Shown: piece by piece, positions 35,864-59,864 of the stretch
Position numbering within the stretch: position 1 is the stretch's first letter
Layout: every line of letters begins with the position of its first letter
Assembly: GCA_942492885.1 (NCBI GenBank)
Contig: OW818651.1
Span: forward strand, 962,959-1,026,958
DNA from: an uncultured Eubacteriales bacterium
GTDB lineage: Bacteria > Bacillota > Clostridia > Christensenellales > CAG-138
Direction: 5' to 3'
Length of the DNA stretch: 64,000 nt
Made by a program: the position numbers and the translations under genes
Notes under the pieces: generated by a model
Database searches by the model: none
What the model saw: only the letters and a program-made list of their open reading frames with translations
What the model was told of the DNA's origin: nothing

Positions 35864-35908
35864 ACGCAACACACATCGCAACAGCCAAACGAAAGGAGCA
35901 CAACGGGA

Positions 35909-37973: not shown

Positions 37974-38100
37974 AGATAGGTATCTCTCAAACTTTTAAGG
38001 TGCAATCTTTGATGCGGCACATGCAACTGTGCCCCGCTATCAAACCAAATAACAGCCCTGCAACGATTCAACATCGTTTGCAGGGCTGTTCCATTCGATT

Positions 38101-41436: not shown

Positions 41437-41459
41437 GTTATCCTCCTCAATCGCCTGAA

Positions 41460-42389: not shown

Positions 42390-42480
42390 GCTCAAGTTGT
42401 CCTTCACTTATAAAATAATGCCACATGTCTCGCTTTGGGTTGCCGGTACGAGATTCAATTGAAACCTGGTTTCAATTCTT

Positions 42481-43362
42481 TTATACGAGACCGCCGCTAT
42501 GGCGCCCTTTCCGATTCCCGATCACCTTTGCCGCACAGAGCAGGCAGAAGCGGATGCCTTCGCCAATCGCACGCTGTTGCAGCAATCGTTTCAGCACATA
42601 CTTCACATATCGAACCCCTTCGCTCTCCGCGCGAACAGCGCCGAAGCGATCCCGATATTTCTCCATGACAAACCCGATTTTATAGTTGCGCTCGTATTCC
42701 TGACGCAGCGAATACAGGTGCGAATGGAGGATGGCGGCTTCCGCGCAGTAGGCAATCTTATAGCCCGCAGTAAGGAACTTTGCGGCAATCAGCATGTCCT
42801 CGTTTGTCAGAATCGGGTGATCAAACCCGCCAACCGCCAGATACGCCTCGCGTCGATAGGCCGAGCAGGCATCCGAGAGGAAAAAAGCCTTGATCCCCAG
42901 TCTCTCAATATCGGAAGCATCGCGCACGTTGCTTTGGGGCGGATAGTTGTATTCCCGCGTGAATTTCTCGTAGAGCGGCGCATCCGCGCGCGCAATCTGG
43001 CGTCCGCAAGCGCTGGCAACGCCCTCCTGCAAAACGGACTTCACAATCGCTTCTACATACTTGTCGCCACTTGGCATGGCATCCTGTGTGAGAAATAAAA
43101 CGATATCCCCATGCGCTGCCCGAAACGCCAAATCCCGGGAACCGCCGTGGTCAAAATCCGCGCGCTTGATTTCGATGACGCGCGTCAACGGATACTTCTT
43201 TGCTATCTCAACAGTATCGTCATTCGATTCCGAATCCAAGACAAGTATCTCATCCGGGCAAAGCGTTTGCTTTAGGAGCATCTCAAGTAAGGACCCCAGC
43301 TCGACACTCGCGTTTAATGTCGGAATGATGATCGATACGGTAGCCTTTTGATTTTGCTCCAT
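42481..43362 (-). CDS. GT2 family glycosyltransferase
   Basis: ORF 42481..43362 with VSIIIPTLNASVELGSLLEMLLKQT and LDSESNDDT. Confidence 0.85.
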   Translation of the reverse strand: MEQNQKATVSIIIPTLNASVELGSLLEMLLKQTLCPDEILVLDSESNDDTVEIAKKYPLTRVIEIKRADFDHGGSRDLAFRAAHGDIVLFLTQDAMPSGDKYVEAIVKSVLQEGVASACGRQIARADAPLYEKFTREYNYPPQSNVRDASDIERLGIKAFFLSDACSAYRREAYLAVGGFDHPILTNEDMLIAAKFLTAGYKIAYCAEAAILHSHLYSLRQEYERNYKIGFVMEKYRDRFGAVRAESEGVRYVKYVLKRLLQQRAIGEGIRFCLLCAAKVIGNRKGRHSGGLV

Positions 43363-43504
43363 GAAATCTTGCCGCTTTCTTACACTTGATTGTCTTCTCT
43401 TCTATGCTAACGTTAGTAGATACTAAGTTCTCTTTTCATACACGCCAACTACATCCTAAGTGCTACACAATTTGCCGGAAAACGAGCTGCATTCAAAAAC
43501 AGGT

Positions 43505-44734
43505 CTATTCCTTTGCAGCAGGCAGTTTTTTTGACGCGCTGAAAATCCGCGCTGCCGCAAAGAGCAGCACGAAATAAACACCATAATGCCGTTCATAATA
43601 CGTGACACCGCCGATATCCATCACCAGATGTGCAAGCATCAGAACGATGAAAACGTAGACCGTGCGGCGTTCTTCCGCGCGCTCATTGTTGGGATCCTCC
43701 GCCTTTGCGCGCTTGATCACCCGCGCAGCATAGATCAGCGCACCGATCTGACCAACATAATAGATCACCAGCATCGGAATGCCGCCGGAGACCAATAGCT
43801 CGATATAGTTGTTGTGCGCATACGAGCCCAGAGAGCCTTCGAGGAAGCGGAAGCAAGCAAGCCCCCACCCGGTCATCGGGCGCTGCGCAAACCAGTAATA
43901 TGCCGCCTGAACCAGCGTGATGCGCTCAGCCGTTGAGCCACCAAGTCCCTCACCTTTTATGAAGAACAGCCCGACCTCGCGAACATGTGCCAGCGCAGGG
44001 ATGCCCATAAACAAATCGGTAAACAAGACGAGCCCACCCGCAACTGCGCCGAGACCCGCAAGGCCTGCGAGTTTCCAGCCCCATTTCTTCGGGAAGCGAA
44101 CCAGCAGCAGCACGACCATTAGTCCCGCCGCGATCACAAGGCTACCAAACGAAATCGTGAGCACGATTCCGCCCAGCAGAATCGCCAGCGGAATCAGCCA
44201 AAGCAGCCGCCAGCGTTTGTCGATAAGCATGACGCATGCGCCGGTTGCAAATGCGCTGATCAATCCGATGGTGTTCGGATGCACCCCATCCGGCCCGCCA
44301 AGCCGCGTTGTGCTCCAGGGCAACATCCGCTCTTTATAATACAGATAGCAAACGGCGAGCATCGTCGCGATCACATAAATCGCCAGATAGCGCCGCATAT
44401 CCGCCCGCAAAAGAAGGTATTGAAACAGAAAGAAGAAAAAGACCGATGTGATGATCAGCGTCTTGACCATGTCAATCGACACCGCGCGATCAAGCGCCCA
44501 ACCAAACGAAACGATCGCGCTCCAGAGGACGAGCAACGCTGAAACGATCATCCACCAGGAGAAGTACAGGTGTTTCTTCTGCAGCACCAGCAGAGCTGTG
44601 CAGCCAAAGAAAACGAGCATGCTTGCCTGAGAGACCAGCGAATGCGCAAAAACGATTTCAGCCAACAGACAGAAACACAATGCAATCTCAGCAATCCAAG
44701 ATAGGACGCGAAACGTTTTTTCCTTCTGATCCAT
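43505..44734 (-). CDS. O-antigen ligase/polymerase family membrane protein (Wzy_C domain)
   Basis: ORF 43505..44734. Roughly 10 TM helices and the YAHNNYIELLVSGGI block typical of Wzy_C. Confidence 0.8.
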   Translation of the reverse strand: MDQKEKTFRVLSWIAEIALCFCLLAEIVFAHSLVSQASMLVFFGCTALLVLQKKHLYFSWWMIVSALLVLWSAIVSFGWALDRAVSIDMVKTLIITSVFFFFLFQYLLLRADMRRYLAIYVIATMLAVCYLYYKERMLPWSTTRLGGPDGVHPNTIGLISAFATGACVMLIDKRWRLLWLIPLAILLGGIVLTISFGSLVIAAGLMVVLLLVRFPKKWGWKLAGLAGLGAVAGGLVLFTDLFMGIPALAHVREVGLFFIKGEGLGGSTAERITLVQAAYYWFAQRPMTGWGLACFRFLEGSLGSYAHNNYIELLVSGGIPMLVIYYVGQIGALIYAARVIKRAKAEDPNNERAEERRTVYVFIVLMLAHLVMDIGGVTYYERHYGVYFVLLFAAARIFSASKKLPAAKE

Positions 44735-45247
44735 ACTTACGATACCTCCATCCGCTTACAAACGGTTTTGATCCAAGTCACTAAACTCTTGCTTTTTTGA
44801 TCAATCAGAGCGATCATTGAAAGCCAACAATATCAGCAGCTAACCAATCCACGCTCATAAAACTGTAATTTTACAAATAAAAGTATACAGATTTTTGTAC
44901 TTAATTGCAAATGCAAGTTGGCTCTTGAAACGAGCATCCAAACGATTCGAACGTTCGCAAGCGCGATTCGCGCGGCCTTGTAACAATCTGCCGGCACAGA
45001 AAAAACGAGACCGTTTCACTGAACTCTATCCAAATTAGGATGCCGCGGCAAGCACAATTCGCAGTATAATTTGATTAAGAAAAAATCTTTCGATCAGACG
45101 CGCCTTCTGCGCCGCTTGACAGAATCCATCGGTTTTCATATGCTTACAGCACAATGCTCGTCATCAACGATAACTCCATCGCGCATGCAATCAGTAGCGC
45201 TGTTATAGTTACGAGCATATGAGCGAAACAAGACGGAGGTAACATCT

Positions 45248-45493
45248 GTGAAGTGTCCGAATTGCAGAAGTGAAAACATTATCATTCAAGCGGTGACGGA
45301 AGTGAAGGAAAAGCGCAAAAAGGGTTGGGCGTACTGGATCTTCATCGGTTGGTGGTGGGAGATCATCGCGTGGATTCTGTTTGGCGTTTGGAAATTGCTG
45401 GTCGTCCTCTTTGGTAAGAAGACCAGGGTCGTTTCGATCACGCGGTCTGTTGCCGTCTGCCAGAACTGCGGCACACGCTGGAATGTGAAATAG
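45248..45493 (+). CDS. small zinc-ribbon membrane protein (LITAF-like topology)
   Basis: ORF 45248..45493; GTG start after ggaggtaacatct. CPNC ... 30-aa Trp-rich hydrophobic segment ... CQNC. Confidence 0.6.
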   Translation: MKCPNCRSENIIIQAVTEVKEKRKKGWAYWIFIGWWWEIIAWILFGVWKLLVVLFGKKTRVVSITRSVAVCQNCGTRWNVK

Positions 45494-45592
45494 CTATTTT
45501 TCATCGCCCTAGTTTGACGAGTAAATTTTTGCACCAATCATCCCAAAACAACAAAAAACCCGCTAGCTGAGCGAGTTTTTTTGTTATCCGAG

Positions 45593-45620
45593 TGGCTGCG
45601 GAACCAGGACTCGAACCCAG
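45593..45620 (-). repeat. orphan copy of the 3' 28 nt of tRNA-Gln (att-like direct repeat)
   Basis: tggctgcggaaccaggactcgaacccag matches 58844..58871 (tggctgcggaactaggactcgaacctag) at 26/28 positions. It covers CCA, discriminator, 3' acceptor strand and T-arm. Similarity stops there and no anticodon arm follows. Confidence 0.7.
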
Positions 45621-45853
45621 CGCAAATGGCTCAGGCATCGTTTTTATTGATCGTTTTACATGTTCTTTCGACACAGTTTAACGATTGAAGGCTCTACTGC
45701 GGTGTTCACAGCACCGTCGTAGAGCCTTTTTGTGTTTCTATGTGCAAACATTTTTAACGATGGTTCGCTACCTTGTGCGTTATTGAACGATTCTTCAAAG
45801 CAAGTTGTCGTAATAAATCTTTACTTCAGGTGTTGAGGTCTCTTTGACCGCAT

Positions 45854-46774
45854 CTAACAGCTCGTCATGTTTCTCCCGTTTTTCTTTGACAAGTACAGCG
45901 CCTGATCAGCAGCATTTAGTAACTCGGTGCTTGAATCGTTCTTTGCCGGCATTCTCGTTGCAACGCCAACGCTGATCGTCACAAACTTTTCGACGGTTGA
46001 GAATGCGTGCGGAATATTCAATGACGCGACCACCAGGCGTAGCTTTTCAGCAATAATAAATGCGCTATCCTCATTTGTATTCGGTAAAACGCACACGAAT
46101 TCCTCGCCGCCGTATCTGGCGAGAAGATCTGTCTTGCGGACAATCACCTTGCATAAGGCGTGCGCAATTTGAATCAAACAGTTGTCCCCGCCCTGGTGTC
46201 CGTAATTGTCGTTATATTGCTTAAATAAATCGATATCCATCATAATGAGAGAAACAGGTATGGATGCGCGAACCGACAGGTTCCAGGTGGATTCGAGATA
46301 TTCGTTGAACTTGCGGCGGTTAGAAATGCCGGTTAAGCCATCCAAATAGGACATGTTCTCCAGATAATCCCGGTATTGCTTGAGTTCGATGTGCATACCG
46401 ACTCTGGCTTTTACGATGACGGAATTGTATGGCTTCTTGATATAATCAACCGCACCCAGATTGAATCCAAAGATTTCCTCGTCTTCATTCACTTTTCCGG
46501 TCACGAATATGATTGGTATGCCTTTTGTCAGTGAATCAGCCTTCAATCGTCTGCACACCTCGTAACCGTCGATGCCGGGCATGATGACATCCAAAAGGAT
46601 CAAGTCCGGCGGGTTCTCGGAAAAAGCGATCTCAAGCGCCTTTTCTCCGTTGATCGCTGCACGGATTTTGTATTCGGGCTTCAAGAGCTCGGCCAGAATA
46701 CTGATGTTTTCTTTCGCATCGTCAACGATCAATACCGTCGGTTGCTCGAACAGATCATTCATTGTCTGCACCAT
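45854..46774 (-). CDS. response regulator-diguanylate cyclase (REC-GGDEF)
   Basis: ORF 45854..46774. REC domain (VLIVDD ... DLILLDVIMPGIDG ... K), RKTD I-site and ARYGGEEF. An alternative start at ATG 46762 is possible. Confidence 0.9.
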   Translation of the reverse strand: MVQTMNDLFEQPTVLIVDDAKENISILAELLKPEYKIRAAINGEKALEIAFSENPPDLILLDVIMPGIDGYEVCRRLKADSLTKGIPIIFVTGKVNEDEEIFGFNLGAVDYIKKPYNSVIVKARVGMHIELKQYRDYLENMSYLDGLTGISNRRKFNEYLESTWNLSVRASIPVSLIMMDIDLFKQYNDNYGHQGGDNCLIQIAHALCKVIVRKTDLLARYGGEEFVCVLPNTNEDSAFIIAEKLRLVVASLNIPHAFSTVEKFVTISVGVATRMPAKNDSSTELLNAADQALYLSKKNGRNMTSC

Positions 46775-49700
46775 CCAATCTGATATTTAGTTCCGCCGCA
46801 ATCTTTTGTAAAGGTTTCTTAGCTGCATCGAAATCAAACCCGTCGACGCATTGTGCAATTTCTTCAACTTCCCCGGCAAATCTCTTTCCCAATGCGCGTT
46901 TCAGTTTTATGATTGCTTTTTCCGAATCGATATCATCCATCCAGATTAGATGCGCTGCCTCCTGTAGAATCGGTTCAAGGTCCGCAACGGAAATCCCGTC
47001 CTGTTCTTCGAATACATTCGCCTGCTTCTCTTGGCGCACAACCTCCAGGGCATCTATGACCGAACCTAGTGCTGTGTCCAACGCATCCAGTAACGCGGTG
47101 CAGTCCCCGGGTGTCGCCGGGATCAATGCTTTTTCCAGCTGCTCCGATAGAGAGAAAATCTCGTTGGCGGATATATTGCCGGCCACGCCTTTCAATGTAT
47201 GCGCCAACCGTCTGGCTTCTTCTATCTTGTTTTCTGAAATCGCTTGCCGGATATTGGCGGCATAGTGTCTGTATCCGCTCGCAAAATCAACCAGTAATTT
47301 CAGGTAAAGCCTCTTGTTTCCGCCGACGCGATTTAGCCCCTCGCTGATGTCTACTCCCGGTATATTGTCTGGCATACTCGGTTCTACGGTTCTGACGCTT
47401 TCTTTTTTCTGAGCGGTTTCCGAAACTTCTCCGTATCGTTCAAGCTTTGGTTTGATCCATTTCACAATGGTGGAAAAGAGATTCTGAGGGTCGATGGGTT
47501 TGCTGACATAATCGTTCATGCCCGCGGCTTTACACTCCGCCTCCACTCCTTGCATCGCATGTGCTGTCATCGCGATGATGGGCAAATTCAGATTCTTGCG
47601 ATCGGCTCGAATGAATTTTGTCGCTTCGTATCCTCCCATGACCGGCATTTGCAAATCCATCAACACCAAGTCATATGTCTTTGCAGCAATCGCATCGATC
47701 GCTTCTTGTCCGTTGTTGGCGACTTCAACAGTTGCCCCCGCGCTGCCTAGTATTTCCGTAGCGACTTCTTGGTTGATCACATTATCTTCGACCAGAAGGA
47801 TTTTTGCTCCGTCGATTCTAATATCTTTTGGTCCTTCATTCGCATTTCCGCTGCTCTGGATTGTCATGCCGCTCTTATCCATGTCAAACATATTTACAAT
47901 CGTATCGAATAGCAATGATTGGTTGATCGGCTTCATGAGGAAATTTTGAACGCCTATCTTTTCTGCTTTCTTTGCGACCTCTTCTCTGCCAAATGCGGAT
48001 ACCATAATGGCCATGGGCGTACGGCTGATATTTTTATCGTTGAGAATCGCCTTTGCAGCCTCAATCCCGTCCATCTCAGGCATTCTCCAATCCATGATCA
48101 CCAGATCAAACGGTTTGTGTTCGGAATGGTTCTTCACCTCTTGAATCGCTGCTTTTCCCGAAGCAACCGCAACCGCATCCACTCCAAATGCACCGATCTG
48201 TTCCTTGAGAATTTCTCTTGAAACTTCGTTGTCGTCTACGATCAGAACCTTCAGATTCTGCAAGCTTTTTTTGTAAACAGGCTGGTTCGCTTTCTCGTCA
48301 CTCTGAATCTGAAATTCGAGTTCAAAGGAGAATGTGCTCCCTACCCCGAACTCACTCTCGACAGAAATGGTTCCTTTCATCATCTCGACCAGCCGTTTGG
48401 AGATCGTCAGTCCCAGCCCTGTTCCACCGAATCTTCTGGTCACAGAAGTATCCGCCTGCGAGAATGCGGAAAACAGTTTGTCTTTTTGTTCTTTTGTCAA
48501 TCCGATTCCCGTGTCAGAAACAGCAAACTTGATCCGGCATGTTTGATCCGCTTTTTCAACAAGCGATACCTCAACAAGTACATGGCCTTCATTCGTGAAT
48601 TTGACCGCGTTGTTGACGAGATTGAGTAAGACTTGTCCGACCCTCAACGGGTCCCCGATCAAGCAATACGGAACATCCCTTTCGATGTTGTTGATTAATT
48701 CAAAGTTCTTATCCGCCGCCTTATTGGAGTTCATGCTGATGACGTTGTTGATCACATCGTCCAGTCGGAAATCAACTGCCTCAAGCTCCAGCTTTCCTGC
48801 TTCCATCTTCGAGAAATCAAGAATATCATTGATGATCCCGAGCAGCGATTTTGCGGAGGCATCAACCTTGTTGATGTAATCCCTCTGTTTCACAGTCATA
48901 TCTGTCTTTTTCAGCAGCTCAGAAAAACCGATGACGGCATTCATCGGGGTACGGATTTCATGGCTCATATTCGCCAGAAATTCGCTTTTTGCATGTGTGG
49001 CTTCTTCTGCAACCGTCTTTGCGTTGATCAGTTCTTCTTCGTTTTTCTTTTGCTGCGTGATATCCCGCAAAATGCAGATCGAATGCCAACCATTGCTCAT
49101 TTCTACTGCGGATAAGGAGAGCTGCACAGGGACAGTCGTCTGGTTCTTTCTTGTCATATCCAGCTCAAACGTCTCCCCGAGGGCAGTTCCTTTCTCGCCG
49201 AAGTGCGGTTTTGGAAACTCGTCAAGCGGTAATTCATTGTGGAATCGCGAAACGAGCAGCCCCTGAGGGTTCTTCCCGATTGCTTCTTGGTTCGAGTACC
49301 CAAAGATTCGCGATGCGGCAAGATTCCAATAGGAGATCGTACCGAAAGAATCCAACATCATAATGGCATCGTAAGCGGAGTCCGTAATGGAACGCATCTG
49401 GATTTCGCGGTCTTTTAGCGCGTCCTCCGTTTGTTTGCGTTTTGTGATGTCGCGGACGGCAGCCATCCTTAGCCTTGAACCGGCAGTCCCCATGGACTTG
49501 CCTTCCACTTCCGCAAGGAATATGGTTCCGTCCTTTTTTAACAGGCTGATCTCAAGAACTCGGCCGGAGTCCTGCGATATGCTTTCGGCAACTGCCGCCC
49601 TATCGTCCGGGCAGATAAAATCGATGATGTTCCTGCCCAACACTTCGCTCTGGTCATATCCCAACATCTTCGCGAGGGAAGGATTCGCGTCCTTTATAAT

Positions 49701-50195
49701 GCCATTCTCGTGGATCACGATTCCTTCGATTGTGATCTCCGCAAGCAGGTGAAATCTGGCCTCCCGCTCTTTCGTTTCCAGCTCCGCCTTTTTTTGGTTC
49801 GTAATATCGGTTGAAATACCCCAAGTGCCAACAATGTTTCTTTCGCGATCATACAGCGGATATCTGGACACGATAGACCAAAGCAGATCACCGTTTGCAA
49901 ACGCAGAGTGTTCCTCCTCGCCGATGATCGGAACCCCGGTTTTCATGATCTCCTGCTCATTGTGAAACGATTTTGTGGCGTGCTCTTCGGAGAAGAAATC
50001 GAAATCCGACTTGCCAATCACGTCCTTCATATCCGTTTTGTTGAGCCTTCTTAGTTGCGCATCGCTCACAAAGAGAAATCGCGATCCCCTATCTTTGATA
50101 TAGATCGAATCGCTTGTGCTCTTCATCATAATTTCGAATACATCTTTATAGCTAAGAGATACGCATTTGAAAAAATCATCCGCAATGCTGCTCAT
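46755..50195 (-). CDS. cytoplasmic multi-PAS hybrid histidine kinase with two receivers and an Hpt domain
   Basis: ORF 46755..50195 with RBS gaggtg. H-box SHEIRTPMNAV, G2 box GTGLGLTISK, two REC domains (VLIVDDNEV.., ILLVEDNVINQ..) and Hpt HTLKGVAGN. Confidence 0.92.
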   Translation of the reverse strand: MSSIADDFFKCVSLSYKDVFEIMMKSTSDSIYIKDRGSRFLFVSDAQLRRLNKTDMKDVIGKSDFDFFSEEHATKSFHNEQEIMKTGVPIIGEEEHSAFANGDLLWSIVSRYPLYDRERNIVGTWGISTDITNQKKAELETKEREARFHLLAEITIEGIVIHENGIIKDANPSLAKMLGYDQSEVLGRNIIDFICPDDRAAVAESISQDSGRVLEISLLKKDGTIFLAEVEGKSMGTAGSRLRMAAVRDITKRKQTEDALKDREIQMRSITDSAYDAIMMLDSFGTISYWNLAASRIFGYSNQEAIGKNPQGLLVSRFHNELPLDEFPKPHFGEKGTALGETFELDMTRKNQTTVPVQLSLSAVEMSNGWHSICILRDITQQKKNEEELINAKTVAEEATHAKSEFLANMSHEIRTPMNAVIGFSELLKKTDMTVKQRDYINKVDASAKSLLGIINDILDFSKMEAGKLELEAVDFRLDDVINNVISMNSNKAADKNFELINNIERDVPYCLIGDPLRVGQVLLNLVNNAVKFTNEGHVLVEVSLVEKADQTCRIKFAVSDTGIGLTKEQKDKLFSAFSQADTSVTRRFGGTGLGLTISKRLVEMMKGTISVESEFGVGSTFSFELEFQIQSDEKANQPVYKKSLQNLKVLIVDDNEVSREILKEQIGAFGVDAVAVASGKAAIQEVKNHSEHKPFDLVIMDWRMPEMDGIEAAKAILNDKNISRTPMAIMVSAFGREEVAKKAEKIGVQNFLMKPINQSLLFDTIVNMFDMDKSGMTIQSSGNANEGPKDIRIDGAKILLVEDNVINQEVATEILGSAGATVEVANNGQEAIDAIAAKTYDLVLMDLQMPVMGGYEATKFIRADRKNLNLPIIAMTAHAMQGVEAECKAAGMNDYVSKPIDPQNLFSTIVKWIKPKLERYGEVSETAQKKESVRTVEPSMPDNIPGVDISEGLNRVGGNKRLYLKLLVDFASGYRHYAANIRQAISENKIEEARRLAHTLKGVAGNISANEIFSLSEQLEKALIPATPGDCTALLDALDTALGSVIDALEVVRQEKQANVFEEQDGISVADLEPILQEAAHLIWMDDIDSEKAIIKLKRALGKRFAGEVEEIAQCVDGFDFDAAKKPLQKIAAELNIRLDGADNE

Positions 50196-50651
50196 ATTCC
50201 ACCTCGTTTATTTTCCATAATGTACCACCGCTTCATCTTGGGTTTGAGTTCGCTAATTTCAGAAGCAATCTGTAATAAAACATGCTTCCGTTCATTTTTT
50301 CACTATTCTATTCATACGCGTCTTGAAGAAAATATTTGTCAAATCAATAGCACTCCAGAAGTTAAAAGTAACGATCACAAATCGAATTATAACAGACAAA
50401 GCGAGATAAACGCTATCCCACCCATTAGACTCGAATCAATCCGAAACCATTCGAATTCCCGTCTCATGAAGCTCGCTTCCGACGCTACATGTGATTGTCT
50501 TTAGCCCCTATCCCGGCTTGCAAAAAACGGTTGGATATCATTGGCATATGGTAATCAAAGACTCATCCATGTTTTCTTCTGACAATCTATTCGCAATCAT
50601 ATTGTATTTTGCTTCTTCCTGCAACTCCAGCCGAATAATGCATCGCTCGCG

Positions 50652-53600
50652 TCAATGATTTGCCTTTGCTTCCGTCAAGGATGAACCGGTTCCCGGCAAT
50701 ATTGTTCTGATAAAAGCGTCTACTACTTTTTGATCAAATTGACTACCCGCACAGCGTATCAATTCCTCAACTGCACATTCTATGCTGATCGCACCCCTAT
50801 ATGGCCTGCTTACCGTCATTGCATCGAAAGAATCAGCAACAGCGATGATCTTTGCTTCGATCGGTATCTGCTTTTCAGTCAACCCAGCCGGATAACCGCA
50901 CCCATCAATTCTTTCGTGATGCGCTTTGACTATCGGAACAATATCTAGATATTCATCAACACTTGCTAATATTCGCGCACTACGAATTGGATGTTGCTTT
51001 ATCAATTCCCATTCTTGGTCGCTTAAGCGTTCGGTTTTGTTCAATATGCTCTCGTCTATTCCTATCTTACCGATATCGTGTAGCGCGCCGGCAACTCTGG
51101 TCTTAGCAACGGTGGCATCGTCAAGCCCCATTTCACTCGCAATTGCCGTCGCGATGGTGCTTACTCGAATCGAATGCTGCTGTTCTCTTTCACTTTTCTC
51201 AAACAAAGTACTCATGATAGCATCGATAACATTGCTGCGCTTGCTCGTGTTCTCCAAGAATTTGCGACGGTTGATATATGTTTCAACTTCCTTCACGAGC
51301 GCATCCATGTCCTGCCCTTGGAATGTTTGGCAGCTGTATCCAAACGTTGCGGTCAACACAGCATCAACGTCGCGTCCTTCGTTGTCCTTGACGATTATTT
51401 GGGTGCACGCCTGCAGCTCTCCTGCAAGTTTCTTCGCCTTTGCTTCCGAGCTACGGGTAAGAAGGACGGCAAACTCGTCTCCGCCAATACGTGCCAGAAC
51501 CGCATCTTTGGGGATTTGTTTTCGTATATCGATTGCAAACTGCTGTATTGCAAGATCCCCGGAGTGATGGCCAAACGAATCGTTGATCAGTTTTAGTCCA
51601 TTTAAGTCGCCTGATACGATCGCTAACGGATAATGCTTTCCGGTGTTTTTATCAGCATATTCGTTTTCAAAATACCTTCTGTTATATGCATCCGTCAAGT
51701 AATCATGATAAGCAAGATATTCAATGTTTTCTTCCGCTCGCTTCTTATCCGTGATATCCAGAAAAACTATAACGCCCGCGCTGATAACGCCCATTGGATT
51801 CCTTATTGGCGCAGCATGAGCAAGCACATACCGATTCTCGAGGTCGTCACGTTGAATGATGAATTCATCACTTCTAGTCTCTCCAAACAAAAATGCTCTG
51901 GCTAAAATGAACTCTTCCTCTTCATATGGTGTTCCATCAAGGTGAAGAAGGCTCCACCTCTTGATATAACTGAGCTTGTCACTATCTTTTTGAAGCTCTT
52001 CTTCCGTTTTATTTCGAATAAGAAGACCGGCTTTGTTAACATATCGCAACTTCCCGCTAGGCGCGTCTACAATAACGATTCCAGCCTGGCTGTTTTCAAA
52101 TGCCGCCTTCAACAATGCTTGAGATTCCGAGAAGGCTTCTTCTGCTTGCTTTCTCTCCGTAATATCCAACGAAGCAATCTGAATGCCAATATTCTGCCCT
52201 GACGCGCCCGTTACTCTCGTAAATACACTTGAAAACCACTTGTGTGCTGAATTCATAACCAGATGGTCCAAATATTCTTGCGGTTTATCGCTTTCAATCG
52301 CTCGTTTAATTCGCGCAAAATAAATTTCTGCTTCTTCATTTGGGAACAATGTACGGATCGATTTGCCAACATAATCTTCTAGTTTTCCGCCAATATTCTC
52401 AAGCGCTTTCTGGTTATACGAAATTACAGTTCCATCTGTTGTATAATACCCAATTCCCACGCCGGAGTTCTCAAAGAGATATTTGTAGCGCTCTTCACTT
52501 TCGATTAGCGCTTTCTCAGCCGCCTTTTTCTCTGTTGTATCAACGAAGCTGATCAATACTCCTGAAATATCTCCATTTTTATCAATGATGTTGAATCCAT
52601 TTACTTTAATCCATTTGATTTTTCTTGGCTCTTCAAAAATGATACCCATTTCATAATCAACAAGAGCCTGTTTGCCTTTGTACACAAGCGAAAACGGGTA
52701 TGCATCTACCGAGAGAGGTTCGCCGAATCTGTCGCAAAAGTGCCACGACTCATCCGAAACATGTTTGTTTTGAATTTGATCTGCTGTAAAGCCCAAAAGT
52801 TCTTCTGCTAAAGAGTTGCTATACGAAATCGATGAGTCAACATTATGTAGGACAATAGCAACCTGTAGATGATCTAATAAAAGTCTTCGTGCATGTTCGC
52901 TTTCTTTTAATGCTGCTTCTGCTTTTTTTTGATTGGTGATGTCCTGTAAAATACAGTGCGTTTGTACGAAATTTCCGCCGAAATCATAACCAATTTTGCC
53001 TTCAAACGCTATAAACAATCGGTTGCCGTTTTTCGCCAGCATTTCGAACTCGCTGTGAATAAATCCCTGCGCCTTGAATATCGGAAACCGATTACGGAAT
53101 CCTTCCACATATTCAGGGCAAAGAAAATCGCCGAACCATTTGCCGATGACTTCCTCGCGCGTATACCCAAGCGTATCGAGCCATTGCTGATTGATCTCAA
53201 TAAAGCGACCGTCAAAATCGAGAGATTGATACCCAAGCGGCGCTCTATTAAATAAAAGTTGAAACCGTTCTTCGCTTTGTTTGAGTTCGATTTCTATTTT
53301 TTTCCGGTTTGTTATGTCTTGCGCCGCGCCCCAAAGCGCGACGATCTTCCCGCTTGAATCGGTCTTTGCCTCCCCGCGCACCCACATCCATCCATTCGAT
53401 CCGTCAAACGTTACCGTTTTTAACTCCAACTCATATGGAATTCCCAGCATTTTCGTGTGTTCAATCGCTGTCGTTAATTGGATCCAACTTTCCGGAGTAA
53501 ATAGTTTCATATGCTCCGAATAAGGAGGCGGTGGCAATGCAGGATCAAACCCATACATCTTATATAACTCTTCTGACCAAACAACTTGATTTGTGATCAA

Positions 53601-54515
53601 ATCCAGATTCCATGTCCCAAGATGCGCTATGCGTTGAGATTCCAGCAATGCAGCTTCTAATCGCTTTTGTTCCGTAATATCTATGCCAATCCCGGTGAAG
53701 TACTTCTGTCCATTCATCAAGAGGGGAACCCCGCTTGAACGCGTCAACATTTTCCCGCCGTTTTTAAGTTTCAACCATGCTTCTACTTCGCCGTATCCTT
53801 TTTCGAAAACTTCACGAACCGCGGCATTAACCTTTAAAAGATCCTTTTGATCAAACCATTGATCAAGGCTCATATGTGCCAATTCCTCAGTGGAATACCC
53901 CGTCATCGTTTCATGCTTATTGTTCCACTTGATCAACTTTCCGCTCTCATCATAAACATACAAGTAACCCGGTATGCTATCGAAGATCGCTTCTATGAGT
54001 GCTTGCTCTCTCTTCAAAGCCTCCACGGTCTTCACTAGTGCCGTATTGGCGGCGAGCAGATCTCTCGTTTTATCTTCGACGAGTGCCGAAAGTATTTGCT
54101 TCTCGTCACGCTTCTGGATGTTTGCAGCGCGAATTTTGAGCATTGCCCGAATTTGAGCGGTCAGCTCGATGTCATCGATCGGTTTTGTTAAAAACGCCTC
54201 TGCGCCACACTCAAGCGCTCTGATTCGGCTATCTTTATTACTTCTGATTGCCGTGACAAACACCACCGGAATATCGCAAAGTTTCTCGTCGCTTTTCAGC
54301 CTGCGGCATACTTCGTATCCGTCCATCCCGGGCATGATGATATCGAGCAGAATGATATCCGGTTCTTCGCTGGCCGCTAACTCAAGTCCTTTTTGTCCAT
54401 TAAGCGCGGAAAGAACCCTTGTATTTGGAAATGCCTCCAGAATGAGCGTGTTTAGAATCGTCAGATTATCCTGATTATCATCAATCATCAGAATTCTCAT
54501 CGTTCTACTTTCCAT
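50652..54515 (-). CDS. REC - multi-PAS - GGDEF - HD-GYP c-di-GMP turnover protein
   Basis: ORF 50652..54569; start set at ATG 54515 (MESRTMRILMIDD), 7 nt after aggagg. REC domain (DIILLDIIMPGMDG), several PAS units, RIGGDEF, HDIGK and HHERIDGCGYP. Confidence 0.9.
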   Translation of the reverse strand: MESRTMRILMIDDNQDNLTILNTLILEAFPNTRVLSALNGQKGLELAASEEPDIILLDIIMPGMDGYEVCRRLKSDEKLCDIPVVFVTAIRSNKDSRIRALECGAEAFLTKPIDDIELTAQIRAMLKIRAANIQKRDEKQILSALVEDKTRDLLAANTALVKTVEALKREQALIEAIFDSIPGYLYVYDESGKLIKWNNKHETMTGYSTEELAHMSLDQWFDQKDLLKVNAAVREVFEKGYGEVEAWLKLKNGGKMLTRSSGVPLLMNGQKYFTGIGIDITEQKRLEAALLESQRIAHLGTWNLDLITNQVVWSEELYKMYGFDPALPPPPYSEHMKLFTPESWIQLTTAIEHTKMLGIPYELELKTVTFDGSNGWMWVRGEAKTDSSGKIVALWGAAQDITNRKKIEIELKQSEERFQLLFNRAPLGYQSLDFDGRFIEINQQWLDTLGYTREEVIGKWFGDFLCPEYVEGFRNRFPIFKAQGFIHSEFEMLAKNGNRLFIAFEGKIGYDFGGNFVQTHCILQDITNQKKAEAALKESEHARRLLLDHLQVAIVLHNVDSSISYSNSLAEELLGFTADQIQNKHVSDESWHFCDRFGEPLSVDAYPFSLVYKGKQALVDYEMGIIFEEPRKIKWIKVNGFNIIDKNGDISGVLISFVDTTEKKAAEKALIESEERYKYLFENSGVGIGYYTTDGTVISYNQKALENIGGKLEDYVGKSIRTLFPNEEAEIYFARIKRAIESDKPQEYLDHLVMNSAHKWFSSVFTRVTGASGQNIGIQIASLDITERKQAEEAFSESQALLKAAFENSQAGIVIVDAPSGKLRYVNKAGLLIRNKTEEELQKDSDKLSYIKRWSLLHLDGTPYEEEEFILARAFLFGETRSDEFIIQRDDLENRYVLAHAAPIRNPMGVISAGVIVFLDITDKKRAEENIEYLAYHDYLTDAYNRRYFENEYADKNTGKHYPLAIVSGDLNGLKLINDSFGHHSGDLAIQQFAIDIRKQIPKDAVLARIGGDEFAVLLTRSSEAKAKKLAGELQACTQIIVKDNEGRDVDAVLTATFGYSCQTFQGQDMDALVKEVETYINRRKFLENTSKRSNVIDAIMSTLFEKSEREQQHSIRVSTIATAIASEMGLDDATVAKTRVAGALHDIGKIGIDESILNKTERLSDQEWELIKQHPIRSARILASVDEYLDIVPIVKAHHERIDGCGYPAGLTEKQIPIEAKIIAVADSFDAMTVSRPYRGAISIECAVEELIRCAGSQFDQKVVDAFIRTILPGTGSSLTEAKANH

Positions 54516-57465
54516 ACAACACCTCCTGAATCTTCTCAAAGAATTCCGCCTCGATGATGGGCTTGGCAATAAATCCGTTGAACCCGTACGCCAGAATAGC
54601 TTCGCGATCCTGTCGCATAGCGCTTGCCGTCAATGCAATCACGGGTACACTCATCAATTTTAAAATGCTTCTAATCTGTTTAAATGCATCGATTCCGCTG
54701 GCATCCGGCAAAGCGATATCCATCAAGATGAGATCAGGAACATGTTTCACTGCCATCTCAATACTTTCTTTCGCGTTTGTCGCTTCTAGGACGACATAAT
54801 CATCCCGCAACAATGCTTTGATGGTGATCCTGTTGTCCGCGTTATCTTCCACTACGAGGACGACCGGTTTCCACTGTATTGGTCTTGCGATTGGTGCGGG
54901 CGTCTCTTTTTCCGCAGTTGCATGATCGAGCATACCCAGGATCGCTTTTTCAAGTTCTTTGGCGTTCACATCGCCCTTTTGAATGAGTTGATGGATGTTA
55001 TTACGTTTCAAAAACTTCAACTCGTCTTTGGTTACTTGTTTTGCCGTCAGAATCAGTACAGGTACATGTGCCGTTATCTCCGCATTGCGCAAAATTTCAA
55101 GTACACGAAAACCATCCACATCCGGCATCATCAGATCAAGAATCATTGCGTCTGGAATCGCATGCTCGATGATTTCGAATGCTTCTCCAGCATTATGCGC
55201 AATGAAGACCTGACAGCCAATTGATTCCACCAAGTCTTTTATTTGGATGATTGCTGATTCATTGTCTTCGACCAATAAGATGCTGTGCTCGTTTAAGCGT
55301 GACTCGTTTCGAGTCGAAAACTGAGCGGTTACCGCCTTAGGCCCGACTGTTGGATACTGCACTATGGCTGAGTCGCACTGAATTGGTAGCGTCAGCGTAA
55401 ACTCAGACCCCACATTCAGCGTACTCGTAACCGAAATCGTCCCTCCCAGCATGTCTGCATATTTTTTGGAGATCGCCAACCCAAGCCCCGCGCCTCCAAA
55501 CCGCCGGGACGTGCTCCCGTCGGCTTGGCGAAACTCATCAAAGATGTACGGTAGTTGCTCCTGCGGGATTCCGATTCCGGTATCACTTATCTTGATACAG
55601 ATCTGTGCTTCGCGGAGTTCAGAAGCAACTATGACGCTTCCCTTTTCGGTGAACTTGACGGCGTTTCCAATCAAGTTTTGCAGGATATGGCGAAATTTAT
55701 CGACATCAGTATAGATCTGAATTGGATTGCCAGACTCATACAGCAGTTCAATCGATTTTTGTTCGGCTTGCGGATGTATCATCTCTACGAGATCGCTTAG
55801 GACTGTATTCGCGTTAAACTGCTCGATCTCGATCTCTTCACGTCCCGCCTCAATGCGAGATATGTCAAGAATATCATTGATCAGCACCAGCAGGTTTTTT
55901 CCGTTACGTTCAATGATTTCTAAAAATCCGAGTTCTTCATCCGGTATCTTGCTCGCAAGTCTGCGGCTTAAAACACCCGTGAGCGCAATGACAGAATTGA
56001 GCGGCGTGCGCAGCTCATGACTCATATTAGACAAGAAATTTGTCTTTAACCGACTGGCTTCATCCAGTTGTTTCTTCTGAAATTCCAGCTCGGTGTTTTG
56101 CTCGGATAATTCCGCAGTTTGCATCTCGAGCTCTTTTGCTTGCTGCTGCAGTTCTGTGTTTTTGTCCTGTAGCCTTTGTGAGAACTCTTGAATCTTCTCG
56201 GACGCCATAATCGAGCTCAACCGCGCTGAGATTTCGTTGAGCAACCCGCTTATTAACCGGACGGAAGCCGGCGAATAACGTTTGATACTTGCAATCGAGA
56301 TGATCGAAATCACATCTTTTTCACTGATAATTGGTATTGTAATGATTTCTCTTGCACGGAACTCTCCGCTGACCGTTGAGAAAACAATCTTCGAATCCGC
56401 TGGAATATCCGTTACGTGCTGCACCGCTTTTGATGCCAATGCGGTTCCGAACTCACCTTCCTTTCTCGAAGTTGAGAATGAGGGCAAGCGCTCCATGCTC
56501 GCGCCGATCGATTCATAGGGTTCAAATCTGTTTTTCTGCTCGTTTGGAAAATAGATTGCAGCAATTTGCGAATCGGTCAGCTGCATCAGCGTTTTTAGTA
56601 ATTCCGAGCAGAACGGCCGCAAAGAATCCTCATGAAACATAACCGAAGAAATCTTCGTAATTTTATCTTTATGTGCTGTCTCTGCTTCTATGGTTTCAGC
56701 CATAGCATTAAACGCCTTTGATAACGTACCGATTTCGCTTTTCGCTTCATACTGCACGCGTGTGTTCAGCTCGCCCTTGTGCATCGCTTCTGCAGCGCCA
56801 GTGATCTCTCTCAATGGTGGAACCATGCTCATTCTCATGAAATAACCGATGCCCAGTAATGCAAGCGCTGCCGCAGAACTCAGAAGCGCCGTTCGCAAAA
56901 TAGTTTGACTTCTTTGCGTCCTGGCACCCTGGTAAAACTCATCGCCTTTGCTTTTTGAGAAATCACTGATGTTTAAAATTGTGCTCAAAACTTTGTCGGC
57001 TTGCAATCCTCCAGCGCCGTCGGCCTTTACCCTGATTCGAGCTTCATCTACTTGCCCCGCATACAACATGCGGATTGTTTCGGCTCGTATGATACTCCAC
57101 AGTGACAATTCGTTGAGCGTCAAATCAATATCGCTTTGTGGTCCGAGATAGCTCTTGTATAGAACGTCTACTTGGCGGTAAGCGTCCGCTTCAAATGAAT
57201 CAATATCCTGAATTAGCTTGTCGGCATTTTGCTGATTCTCTTCCAACACTAGCTGCATCATATTTCGATGGATGAGAAGAACGTCTGCCTCGATTTCTGC
57301 TACCGCTCTGCGCGACGTGAGAGGATGTTCGTAAAGTCCAGCGGTGTTGACCCACATTCCCTCAATCGAACTCAATGCGCTAACAGAAAGCAGCACGATC
57401 AAAAGCATAATCATTGCCAACCAGATGTATATTTGTTTCGATATTGTAAGGTTTTTCATTTTCAT
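54505..57465 (-). CDS. membrane hybrid histidine kinase (MCP-style N-terminal sensor, HAMP, GAF, HisKA/HATPase, two receivers)
   Basis: ORF 54505..57465. TM helix - periplasmic helical region - TM helix - HAMP (PPLREITGAAEAMHKGELN), H-box SHELRTPLNSV, GGAGLGLAISK, then two REC domains. Confidence 0.9.
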   Translation of the reverse strand: MKMKNLTISKQIYIWLAMIMLLIVLLSVSALSSIEGMWVNTAGLYEHPLTSRRAVAEIEADVLLIHRNMMQLVLEENQQNADKLIQDIDSFEADAYRQVDVLYKSYLGPQSDIDLTLNELSLWSIIRAETIRMLYAGQVDEARIRVKADGAGGLQADKVLSTILNISDFSKSKGDEFYQGARTQRSQTILRTALLSSAAALALLGIGYFMRMSMVPPLREITGAAEAMHKGELNTRVQYEAKSEIGTLSKAFNAMAETIEAETAHKDKITKISSVMFHEDSLRPFCSELLKTLMQLTDSQIAAIYFPNEQKNRFEPYESIGASMERLPSFSTSRKEGEFGTALASKAVQHVTDIPADSKIVFSTVSGEFRAREIITIPIISEKDVISIISIASIKRYSPASVRLISGLLNEISARLSSIMASEKIQEFSQRLQDKNTELQQQAKELEMQTAELSEQNTELEFQKKQLDEASRLKTNFLSNMSHELRTPLNSVIALTGVLSRRLASKIPDEELGFLEIIERNGKNLLVLINDILDISRIEAGREEIEIEQFNANTVLSDLVEMIHPQAEQKSIELLYESGNPIQIYTDVDKFRHILQNLIGNAVKFTEKGSVIVASELREAQICIKISDTGIGIPQEQLPYIFDEFRQADGSTSRRFGGAGLGLAISKKYADMLGGTISVTSTLNVGSEFTLTLPIQCDSAIVQYPTVGPKAVTAQFSTRNESRLNEHSILLVEDNESAIIQIKDLVESIGCQVFIAHNAGEAFEIIEHAIPDAMILDLMMPDVDGFRVLEILRNAEITAHVPVLILTAKQVTKDELKFLKRNNIHQLIQKGDVNAKELEKAILGMLDHATAEKETPAPIARPIQWKPVVLVVEDNADNRITIKALLRDDYVVLEATNAKESIEMAVKHVPDLILMDIALPDASGIDAFKQIRSILKLMSVPVIALTASAMRQDREAILAYGFNGFIAKPIIEAEFFEKIQEVLYGK

Positions 57466-58296
57466 TTAAACCTCCGCTTTCTTTTGGAAAATCGGTGATT
57501 GCGGAACGACAGCGCGTAATCCACTATATTTTAAAACGTTCTGCCTCTCTGCTTCCCCGGTTACTAAATATCCATTCCCGGTAAGGGCGTTTGCTAATTT
57601 CTTCAGAATTAACCCCTGCGATTTACTTTCATAATAGAAAAGAACATTGCTGCAGATGATAAGGTCAAAGTTCCCAAATATACTCTCCTGAGGATTTGCG
57701 GAGAGCGGATCTAATAGATCATAACGGGAGAAACTTACACGCTGTTTCAAACTTTCGCAAACGGTGTAGGTGTTGCCCGATCTCTCAAAGAACTGATTGA
57801 TGTCTCTTGCTCGAATCGTTTGAATGGCCTCTTGACTGTATTCTCCGTTGAGCGCGAATCCCAATGCATATTCCGAAATATCCGTTGCGATGATTCGATA
57901 TCGAAATGGGTCTCTCCGCTTATCCGCTGCATTTTCCAGCATCATCGCGATTGAGTATGCTTCCTGCCCTGTTGAACATCCAGCCGACCAAACCCGAAGC
58001 TCACTGCCAAACGGTTTACGATTGATGAGATTCGGAAGAAGCCACTGTTCTAAATTTGCAAAAGTAAGTGCGTTTCTAAAGAATTCGGTATATGTAATAT
58101 TCAAAGACCGAACAAGTAAATCAGCCTCCGGTTTATTGCTGGATATGATTTCAAGATAACCCTGAATATCATTGACCCCAAGAGCTACACACCTGCGATC
58201 GACAGCTTGCTTAAAAAATGCATCATCAAACTGCGCGAGATCAATCCCGTACAGAGCTTTTAACGTTTCTATAATTGATTGCAACTCATTTTGCAT
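57466..58296 (-). CDS. CheR-type SAM-dependent protein-glutamate O-methyltransferase
   Basis: ORF 57466..58296 with YTEFFRN and VWSAGCSTGQEAYSIAMML blocks. Its stop directly abuts the kinase start. Confidence 0.88.
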   Translation of the reverse strand: MQNELQSIIETLKALYGIDLAQFDDAFFKQAVDRRCVALGVNDIQGYLEIISSNKPEADLLVRSLNITYTEFFRNALTFANLEQWLLPNLINRKPFGSELRVWSAGCSTGQEAYSIAMMLENAADKRRDPFRYRIIATDISEYALGFALNGEYSQEAIQTIRARDINQFFERSGNTYTVCESLKQRVSFSRYDLLDPLSANPQESIFGNFDLIICSNVLFYYESKSQGLILKKLANALTGNGYLVTGEAERQNVLKYSGLRAVVPQSPIFQKKAEV

Positions 58297-58811
58297 ATGG
58301 GCTCCAATTCGATTTATTTGAATTGCGCGGACTGAAATGATTGGTTTGAAAGTCTCATTTGTAGATTCTTTTTGTGCGCTTCAAATGCTGCCCCGCAATC
58401 AAAAAACGATGGGATCGTTCACGTAAATTGTTAGTCACGCGAGCGTTACTATTTAGTAATAAAAGGCTCGAGATATTGTAGACCAACTGCGATTTATAAA
58501 ACACACTGACATGCAACAAGCACACACATGTTCTGATTTCATTGTAGTATCCAACACAATCCACCGTCAATGTTTATCTGCTTTATCGGACCGCGCCGGA
58601 CACGTTCAGGCGGGAAAGTTTAGCCATCTACGTGGACAAATCGATCAAGAGCGAATAGGTCTGTGAAACCTGATTGATTCATTCGGATTCGAACGTAATG
58701 GGTATTACATATTTCGTTACCAATTGTATTGATATCCCGTTGCACAAGACTCTGACATGTTGGCTAAATACATGATATTCTAGCGGTATTTACAATTACT
58801 TGTTTTTCAAA

Positions 58812-58838
58812 CAAAAAAAGCGCCCTTATAAGGCGCTC
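58812..58838 (-). terminator. intrinsic terminator of the tRNA operon
   Basis: Minus strand reads agcgcc-ttataag-ggcgct followed by ttttttt, 5 nt after the tRNA-Gln CCA. Confidence 0.7.
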
Positions 58839-58843
58839 AATTT

Positions 58844-58917
58844 TGGCTGCGGAACTAGGACTCGAACCTAGACAATACGAGTCAGAGTCGTAGGTGCTAC
58901 CATTACACAATTCCGCA
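58844..58917 (-). tRNA. tRNA-Gln (anticodon CUG)
   Basis: Hand-folded cloverleaf: acceptor TGCGGAA/TTCCGCA (U1:A72, G73, encoded CCA), D stem GTGT/GCAC, anticodon stem TACGA/TCGTA with loop CT-CTG-AC, T arm CTAGG-TTCGAGT-CCTAG. Confidence 0.95.
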
Positions 58918-58928
58918 ATGTGGATGTT

Positions 58929-59107
58929 GAGTATCCCGAAGTGCCGTTCGCCTTCTGTATAACACCCGCCTCTCGGCAGGTGGGTACGCCGTGATTGACG
59001 CGATCTTCCCATCCGTAATGGGCCTGATCTTGTCTTCTCAACGAAACGCTCCCGAAGTTACTTTGTGGGTTTATAACCGAAAACGTCACGCACACCGCAG
59101 GATATTC
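58929..59107 (-). ncRNA. candidate rod-shaped structured RNA (6S RNA-like) in the tRNA-Val/tRNA-Gln spacer
   Basis: No credible ORF. The 5' GAAUAUCCUGCGGUG pairs with the 3' CACUUCGGGAUACUC (13/15). Further in, CGUU..UAUAA.CCC pairs with GGGUGUUAUA..AACG. There is an apical CCCAU-UACGG-AUGGG hairpin flanked by GAUC/GAUC, and a GNRA-capped side hairpin CCUGCC-GAGA-GGCGGG. Confidence 0.4.
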
Positions 59108-59118
59108 AATTTTGAAGG

Positions 59119-59195
59119 TGGTGGGGTTAATTGGGATCGAACCAACGACCTCTACGATGTCAACGTAGCGCTCTGACCAGCTGAGCTATAACCCC
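59119..59195 (-). tRNA. tRNA-Val (anticodon GAC)
   Basis: Hand-folded cloverleaf: acceptor GGGGTTA/TAACCCC, A73, encoded CCA, D arm GCTC-AGCTGGTCA-GAGC, anticodon stem CTACG/CGTAG with loop TT-GAC-AT, T arm GTTGG-TTCGATC-CCAAT. Confidence 0.95.
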
Positions 59196-59236: not shown

Positions 59237-59670
59237 GACGTTTTTTCTCTTTTTTAGACAGAAAAATCAAGTGCGAATTTTGCATATTTTACGATTGTTA
59301 CCGTGTGATAAGCGGACAAATCAGCAAAAACGACAGTTTTCCGCGTAATTGCTCGATTTTTTTGCGAACCATACCGGATGATGCGCGCTGGCAGTTGCCT
59401 GTCTCGCATGCAGAAAAATGCATTTCTATAAATATTTTTGTAGGTTTCGCGCGAGAAAAGAACGCGTTTGAGGAAGCTTTTTGTGTGTAACAGGAAGTTC
59501 ACTTTCTATCCATTGCTAATCCACAAGCGCGGAGTACATTATACCCAGAGCAAGGACATAGACTGACAAACCCCCAATATTACCTCCCATCCCATCCCAA
59601 TCAAAAGCCTCTACCAGAAACGGTAGGGGCTTTTGATTTTTGGGACTTTGTTCGTGAGGGGTGGGTTCGC

Positions 59671-59794
59671 GGGCGGATAATATCCGCCCCTACAGCGGCT
59701 TGCGCGGATTCTCAACCAAACGTCGTGAACGTTCTTCGTATTCTCTTTCACAAGTTCACCCGCCGTACAAAGTAGGGGCGGATATCATCCGCCC
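59671..59794. repeat. MITE-like palindrome-ended interspersed element, copy 2
   Basis: Ends gggcggataatatccgcccctac and gtaggggcggatatcatccgccc are inverted repeats (1 mismatch). The interior (ctcaaccaaacgtcgtgaacgttcttcgtattctctttcacaagttcacccgcc) aligns with copy 1. Confidence 0.6.
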
Positions 59795-59864
59795 GCATCA
59801 AAAGTCGTTCAGGGCTTTTGATTTTTGGCCTTCTTTCTTCTTGTACGCGTATTTCTCCTGATTT

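Follow-up and report, generated by a model that had tools for sequence, protein, structure and literature searches.

A probable decayed, integrase-less island carrying signaling genes in tRNA-Gln(CUG) of an uncultured Eubacteriales bacterium

Introduction

Islands integrated into tRNA genes (tDNAs) are marked by their two ends, a regenerated tDNA and a displaced tDNA fragment, on which the Islander program relies according to its published description (Hudson, Lau and Williams 2015, PMC4383910). That description counts 3919 islands, 2083 of them anticodon-centered and 1836 located in the T-stem region; tDNA sublocation classes are those of Williams 2002 (PMC100330). Here, a stretch of 64,000 nucleotides (nt) from an uncultured Eubacteriales bacterium (GenBank assembly GCA_942492885.1, contig OW818651.1, positions 962,959 to 1,026,958 of the forward strand; hereafter the window) was analyzed. 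The window contains an interval of 13.2 kb, positions 45621-58843, that lies between the tRNA-Gln(CUG) gene and a displaced copy of its 3' end. This interval is very probably a decayed, integrase-less tDNA island, a member of a well-known kind whose cargo, made up entirely of signaling genes, is unusual.

Set beside the islands treated in the Islander description (PMC4383910), the interval shares with them the regenerated tRNA at one end and the same-orientation 3' fragment at the other, a crossover block that begins in the T stem and runs through the 3' end, as in the T-stem-region class, a foreign composition and a hotspot common to several elements. It differs from them in having no integrase, no mobility, phage or conjugation genes, and a cargo devoted to signal transduction only. 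Because the integrase gene is absent, the filter of Islander, which requires one according to the same description, would reject it. No new mechanism is implied; the locus offers a worked example of a stranded tRNA-gene island, of a sort that integrase-requiring programs such as Islander would miss.

Materials and Methods

The genome under study (G000) is a single contig (C1) of 3,395,507 bp and is 94.7% complete. Relatives are designated by G-numbers, and fetched loci or contigs by L-numbers. tRNA genes were called with ARAGORN, RNA families were assigned with Rfam and protein domains with Pfam. The comparison set comprised 17 congeners, from which up to 20 kb 3' of tRNA-Gln was fetched, or less where the contig ended. 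The composition of interval 45621-58843, expressed as guanine plus cytosine (GC) content and tetranucleotide distance, was compared with that of 512 G000 windows of the same size. Chance occurrence of the 28-nt repeat was assessed by a degenerate search of 100 dinucleotide-preserving shuffles.

Integration at tRNA-Gln(CUG)

The attachment-site (att) features and the gene next to them are as follows.

58844..58917, minus strand: intact tRNA-Gln(CUG), representing attL (ARAGORN, anticodon ctg; Rfam tRNA, 58.7 bits)
58844-58871, minus strand: recombination core, the last 28 nt of tRNA-Gln (T-arm, 3' acceptor strand, CCA)
58818..58838, minus strand: island-side intrinsic terminator directly 3' of the regenerated tRNA-Gln, the top terminator-like match in the region
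45593..45620, minus strand: displaced tRNA-Gln 3' fragment (attR core), 26/28 to the tRNA 3' end
45533..45592, minus strand: ancestral downstream flank of tRNA-Gln, 60 nt, with the original, strong terminator at 45581..45553
45248..45493, plus strand: zinc-ribbon membrane protein gene, 81 amino acids (aa), outside the island

Only one of the 53 tRNA genes of G000 is for Gln(CUG), and it does not differ in sequence from the genus consensus. On the minus strand its 3'-terminal 28 nt are CTAGGTTCGAGTCCTAGTTCCGCAGCCA, and positions 45620..45593 of the same strand read CTGGGTTCGAGTCCTGGTTCCGCAGCCA. The two mismatches between them are both A>G, at T-stem positions 51 and 64. The fragment has the orientation of tRNA-Gln and lies on its 3' side, as Islander expects of a displaced fragment. 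None of the 100 shuffles contained a match to the 28-mer, and in the window itself only these two sites were found. A search of G000 allowing up to three mismatches returned the two copies and the T-arm of tRNA-Trp, the latter at three mismatches; the 28-mer is not a dispersed tRNA fragment. An earlier note on the window had named such dispersal as a result that would undo its interpretation.

Similarity between the fragment and tRNA-Gln spans the T arm through CCA and no more, with a sharp end 5' of the copy; around the fragment, similarity carries on into the ancestral flank downstream rather than into the body of the tRNA. Fragment and flank together match the sequence 3' of the intact tRNA-Gln of G014 at 87.5% over 88 nt. 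The same type of flank lies 3' of the intact tRNA-Gln in G046, G007, G023 and G006, and also 3' of displaced fragments in G010 and G020. Each of the two 28-nt copies has a terminator directly 3' of it. The one on the island side, 58838..58818, could not be aligned with the ancestral flank and replaces the ancestral terminator.

An empty site was found in G046, on contig C437, where the gene order is a GyrI-like gene, tRNA-Val, 6S RNA, tRNA-Gln, ancestral flank, zinc-ribbon gene, ImmA-like gene and XRE gene. When positions 45593-58843 were removed from G000, the joined sequence aligned with this contig in one high-scoring segment pair of 832 nt, 85.9% identical, that spans the junction; with unmodified G000 the alignment ended 3 nt past the tRNA. 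The att sequences divide as expected for an integration: attL equals attB leftward up to GCAGCCA, and attR equals attB from the T stem rightward, including about 60 nt of flank. Contig C437 of G046 is thus an uninterrupted attB in a relative, colinear with the joined flanks. The zinc-ribbon gene, which directly follows the tRNA-Gln flank in G046 (89% aa identity), is the pre-insertion neighbor of tRNA-Gln. No orthologues of the five island genes were found 3' of tRNA-Gln in the 17 congeners. These alignments show an integration that regenerated the tRNA and displaced its original 3' end.

The interval has a GC content of 45.2%, the genome mean being 54.6% (z = -2.85; 11th lowest of the 512 windows), and its tetranucleotide distance to the genome is the 12th highest of the 512 (z = 3.1), which makes it an outlier at genome level. 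GC is uniformly low over the interval, both arms included, and the outer flanks on both sides have ordinary composition. To the left, a polysaccharide locus (36.6-45.5 kb) is intermediate (GC 49.6%, z = -1.4). It is a separate insertion, described under Neighboring features, and this explains the blurred compositional boundary on that side.

The earlier note, made from the letters of the window, had claimed the 26/28 copy, its exact extent from T-arm to CCA with an abrupt end, the attL/attR geometry of a tRNA-targeting element, the AT-richness of the interval and the lack of a sharp compositional boundary on the left. All of these hold: the copy against the shuffles, its extent in the att alignment with G046, the geometry by the empty site and the ancestral flank that follows the fragment, and the composition in the windowed comparison. 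Its prediction that at an empty site tRNA-Gln would lead straight to the zinc-ribbon gene is realized in G046.

Gene content and decay of the interval

The interval consists of five minus-strand open reading frames (ORFs), all of which encode signaling proteins by their Pfam domains, and three non-coding stretches (58297-58843, 50196-50651 and 45621-45853). From the tRNA outward, its features are the following.

58297..58843, no strand: tRNA-proximal arm, 547 nt, non-coding, at the position where congeners carry an integrase
58590..58670, plus strand: remnant of an OrfB (rve) transposase of the insertion sequence (IS) family IS3, 27 codons with an in-frame stop
57466..58296, minus strand: CheR-type methyltransferase, first cargo gene (Pfam CheR, 4e-46; proteins 84-92% identical on metagenome contigs)
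54505..57465, minus strand: hybrid histidine kinase, 4HB_MCP-HAMP-GAF-HisKA-HATPase-REC-REC (Pfam)
50652..54569, minus strand: response regulator, REC-PAS(xN)-GGDEF-HD-GYP (Pfam; 50-74% identical in the G020 cassettes described below)
50196..50651, minus strand: deletion scar, 456 nt, with a B12-binding remnant at 50555..50391 and a membrane-protein remnant at 50417..50295
46755..50195, minus strand: PAS-rich hybrid histidine kinase, REC-REC-Hpt (Pfam; 73-80% identical orthologues in G003, G022 and G010)
45854..46774, minus strand: REC-GGDEF diguanylate cyclase, last cargo gene (Pfam; 92-94% identical in G003, G022 and G010)
45621..45853, no strand: distal arm, 233 nt, island-specific, lacking a homologue in related cargo copies

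No integrase, the further mark that Islander looks for, was found in the window by a six-frame search with PF00589. The integrases that adjoin tRNA-Gln in G003, G005, G010 and G020, and a 457-aa tyrosine recombinase of G020, gave no tblastn match to the window up to E = 10. Nor was an integrase of either of the two families used at tRNA-Gln in the genus (see below) found anywhere in G000, where the best match, at C1:2.99 Mb, is 32% identical. Virion, packaging and lysis genes were not found: Pfam domains of the five ORFs are those of signaling proteins only, and the arms have no protein similarity except for the IS3 remnant. The ORFs likewise contain no domains of a relaxase, coupling protein or type IV secretion system, and there is no space for more genes. 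In the proximal arm, the sole ORF of at least 70 aa is a candidate 71-aa frame starting with TTG (58355-58570, minus strand), which lies mostly in sequence shared with metagenome contigs L163 and L164 upstream of CheR; the arm holds no convincing gene.

The IS3 remnant was detected by tblastn with a G020 transposase (Pfam rve/rve_3/HTH_21), to which it has 19/27 identities (E = 4e-6). All the copies of this transposase detected in G000 are fragmentary. IS copies or inverted repeats do not frame the island at its two ends: the single 81-nt remnant lies in the proximal arm, and nothing IS-like was seen in 45621-45853.

The deletion scar between the two halves of the cargo was resolved by contigs L163 and L164, whose CheR is 84% identical to that of G000 and which follow the window colinearly between 58590 and 49504 with a DNA identity of 80-89%. 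Where G000 has the gap, these contigs contain four intact genes, for a B12-binding protein, a 149-aa ORF, a GGDEF protein and a 180-aa ORF, with colinearity on both sides. Two of them are still recognizable in G000 by tblastn, the B12-binding protein at 69% over 55 aa (E = 4e-19) and the membrane protein (gene of 180-183 aa) at 49% over 41 aa. The cargo is therefore one ancestral block from which about 2.7 kb has been lost in G000. Together, the IS3 remnant and the deletion scars show decay.

The earlier note had listed five signaling genes and neither integrase nor transposase in the interval. The gene list and the absence of an integrase, for all the families searched, stand; the absence of a transposase must be amended in view of the remnant at 58590-58670. 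Its suggestion of an island that is old and immobilized, or has had its integrase deleted, gains support from the missing integrase, the IS3 remnant and the scar.

The distal arm gave no match in blastn and tblastx searches against all fetched loci. Within the same genome, part of it (45666-45796) matches C1:1436910-1437040 with 70% identity across 132 nt; this second site lies 83 nt after a tRNA-Val(CAC), has an IS3 OrfB fragment behind it and may be another decayed insertion at a different tRNA.

Other elements at tRNA-Gln(CUG)

Throughout this uncultured, Christensenellaceae-like genus, the tRNA-Gln(CUG) gene is a recombination hotspot, which serves two families of integrase that differ in sublocation, and at least one phage. 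Six-frame searches with PF00589 placed tyrosine integrases next to it in G003, G005, G010 and G020, and in G003, G010 and G020 displaced tRNA-Gln fragments of the same strand were found at a distance of 27-35 kb downstream. The integrases of G003, G005 and G020 constitute family 1, with about 80% mutual identity; that of G010 represents family 2 and is about 23% identical to family 1.

A close counterpart of the G000 island is the G010 element (C14:71.4-106.6 kb), a siphovirus-like prophage of 35 kb with a family-2 integrase of 377 aa and genes for large terminase, portal, head protease, major head protein, tape measure, minor tail protein, endolysin and replication initiator. Both elements use the same target gene, both have a repeat that starts at the same T-stem base (C49), which is the first base of the G000 fragment, and in both the same ancestral flank follows the displaced fragment. 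They differ in that the prophage still has its integrase, separated from the tRNA by 27 nt, along with a complete complement of genes for virion and lysis, and in that its repeat reaches about 55 nt further into the flank. The repeat is the only sequence that the two share.

The family-1 islands of G003, G005 and G020 also occupy this tRNA gene, with the integrase adjacent to it, and in G003 and G020 the fragment lies 27-32 kb away. Unlike the G000 island, they are of the anticodon-type sublocation: their identity block starts at the anticodon stem and measures 49-53 nt in G020, a longer core that the G000 fragment lacks. The two families fit the established division of tDNA islands by att site, anticodon-centered or in the T-stem region.

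The cargo at other loci

Relatives of the cargo were found away from tRNA-Gln. The segment 58350-50694 of the window, from CheR to the GGDEF-HD-GYP regulator, recurs with the same gene order and 72-82% DNA identity in G020 (three copies; OY771363.1, a metagenome-assembled genome (MAG) labeled 'Christensenellaceae bacterium') and in G051 (one copy; OY762290.1). These cassettes share the CheR/kinase/GGDEF-HD-GYP order with G000 and, unlike the G000 island, are not located at a tRNA. All three copies in G020 are preceded by a 457-aa tyrosine recombinase that has a helix-turn-helix (HTH) insert, a gene absent from the G000 island. Neither a tRNA nor clean terminal repeats were found at the G020 copies.

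The G020 units (L060 6811-16578, L061 and L062 6178-14538), composed of the recombinase with its HTH_3 insert and the CheR/kinase/GGDEF-HD-GYP genes, are mutually 93-99% identical; one copy lacks the kinase and one has an inserted ORF pair. Clean element ends for them were sought and rejected, with similarity starting within the recombinase gene and no terminal repeats seen.

In G003, G022 and G010, the distal pair of genes (PAS kinase and REC-GGDEF) occupies three distinct low-GC loci. Its DNA homology to these loci stops at the stop codon of REC-GGDEF, so that 45621-45853 is specific to the island.

The hybrid kinase of the proximal half has relatives 75-81% identical in congeners and on a MAG contig, paired with CheR every time. 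More distant CheR/hybrid-kinase pairs occur in MAGs of Bacillota, Spirochaetota (Sphaerochaeta), Bacteroidota (Paludibacter) and Desulfobacterota. CheR with a 4HB_MCP-HAMP-GAF kinase that has no MCP signaling domain (54505-58296; L066-L092) is a conserved pair, 31-81% identical, in several phyla of anaerobes.

An exact look-up returned no exact match to the G000 CheR. Exact pattern searches gave 0 matches in metagenome contigs for the attB-like and attL junctions, and two island-arm patterns gave 0 matches in viral contigs.

Origin of the island

The alignments show that an integrative element recombined, through its attP, with the 28 nt that end the single-copy tRNA-Gln(CUG) gene (T-arm, 3' acceptor strand and CCA). 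The 3' end of the gene was regenerated with element sequence and a new terminator (attL 58844-58871), and the original 3' end with its terminator was displaced 13.2 kb downstream (attR 45593-45620, flank 45533-45592). The recombinase was presumably a tyrosine integrase with T-stem sublocation, such as the G010 prophage has, as the same core start suggests. The integrase and all other mobility genes would have been lost later, probably in connection with IS3 insertion and decay in the tRNA-proximal arm. With these genes gone and no related integrase elsewhere in G000, the island would be stranded. What remains is a colinear low-GC block, eroded by internal deletions, of CheR, hybrid kinase, REC-PAS-GGDEF-HD-GYP regulator, deletion scar, PAS kinase-Hpt and REC-GGDEF. 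The odds are about even that this signaling block came as the original cargo or that an IS3-associated event carried it into older remains. The findings show a complete signaling circuit of cyclic di-GMP (c-di-GMP) and histidine-aspartate type to be horizontally mobile cargo in anaerobic communities, which bears on how regulatory repertoires of MAGs are to be read.

Several observations weigh against this explanation. In G046, the contig with the empty site has a length of just 3.1 kb and belongs to a fragmented MAG. The nearest relatives in the comparison have about 85% DNA identity to G000 and none is of the same species, so that the insertion is neither datable nor demonstrably polymorphic. 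No integrase, excisionase or arm-type repeats are left in the island, and the recombinase family is consequently deduced from the core boundary only. The cargo block occupies non-tRNA loci in G020, whose three copies adjoin different tyrosine recombinases, in G051 and in L163/L164. Finally, the homology of L163/L164 to the cargo block ends exactly at the IS3 remnant 58590-58670, and the cargo may therefore have arrived apart from the att scars.

The last two observations favor an explanation to which we give somewhat less than an even chance, namely that att scars and cargo differ in origin: an earlier element, for example a G010-like prophage, would have been deleted and the signaling block added by an IS3-mediated or homologous event, in which case the 13 kb would not be the element that integrated. 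The same core does bound a 35-kb prophage in G010, for the distal pair too the loci (in G003, G022 and G010) are unrelated and not at a tRNA, and fragments of IS3 and of a recombinase lie upstream of the block in L163 as well. This sequence of events, however, requires more steps than a single integration followed by integrase loss, and it fits poorly with the uniformly low GC that includes both arms and with the lack of any phage or other mobility-gene remnant in the 13 kb.

We regard it as rather unlikely that the block, including the B12-binding protein, is a self-contained signaling cassette that moves as a unit among anaerobes with any recombinase at hand. On that account the recombinases would be the tRNA-Gln integrase in G000, the HTH-bearing tyrosine recombinase in G020 and the IS3/serine-recombinase neighbors in L163. 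If it were true, there would be a mobile element with a c-di-GMP/phosphorelay circuit as its sole cargo.

An assembly artifact, in which a low-GC block was misjoined into the single-contig genome, is suggested by the probable metagenomic origin of G000, whose relatives are labeled MAGs; yet a misjoin would not yield a displaced fragment with the correct flank and a regenerated tRNA opposite, and both junctions lie in unique sequence, which makes it very improbable. Least credible of all is that the 28-mer is the relic of a decayed tandem tRNA-Gln duplicate or a chance match, for although tRNA gene fragments occur in prokaryotic genomes by the account of PMC9897764, the shuffles gave none, similarity passes from the T arm and CCA into the ancestral flank, the boundary is that of the G010 prophage repeat, and the empty-site alignment with G046 already contradicts it. 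The interval remains best described as a decayed tDNA island.

Neighboring features

On the left, a rhamnose/polysaccharide locus of about 8.7 kb (36490-45227) comprises a GT4 gene, rmlC, rmlB, rmlD, rmlA, two GT2 genes and a Wzy-like gene. It is absent from G046, in which about 215 nt separate the ImmA-like gene from the zinc-ribbon gene, and homology to G046 breaks at about 36.33-36.49 kb and at 45227. No tRNA fragment was found at this insertion. Relative to G046, the locus is a separate, att-less insertion placed between the ImmA-like and zinc-ribbon genes, and not part of the island. A third att copy near 36.5 kb, as in a tandem array, was considered and rejected, there being none at up to five mismatches. 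Other sugar genes occupy the same slot in G002, G003 and G019. A 244-nt segment comprising the 5' end of the Wzy-like gene and its upstream sequence (44700-44943) is repeated at 89% identity at C1:2234630-2234868, in a region (C1:2.22-2.25 Mb) rich in IS3 fragments and containing a pseudo-integrase.

The pair of XRE and ImmA-like (HEXXH) genes at 35531-36388 is present in 14 of the 18 congeners examined, where it forms the inner edge of the variable region beside tRNA-Gln. The ImmA-like gene is at 35909-36388; an ORF called mechanically at 35943-36593 was discarded as a wrong-frame artifact.

The zinc-ribbon gene lies about 30 nt upstream of the family-1 integrase, on the same strand, in G003 (L148) and G006 (L152), and has no integrase within 1.5 kb in G046, G045, G007, G049, G020 and G001. 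That it is a leftover of a family-1 integrase module was considered as a candidate idea.

On the right, tRNA-Val(gac) was called by ARAGORN at 59119-59195 (minus strand), and a 6S RNA (Rfam RF00013, 63.2 bits; gathering score 46.4) lies at 58929-59106 (minus strand), between tRNA-Val(GAC) and tRNA-Gln(CUG). The tRNA-Val/6S/tRNA-Gln unit is 83-97% identical genus-wide and is recognizable at 70-75% in two genomes of other families. Further to the right, positions 59669-59800 contain an element of about 130 nt with terminal inverted repeats of about 28 nt, resembling a miniature inverted-repeat transposable element (MITE), of which G000 has at least eight copies at 72-83% identity.

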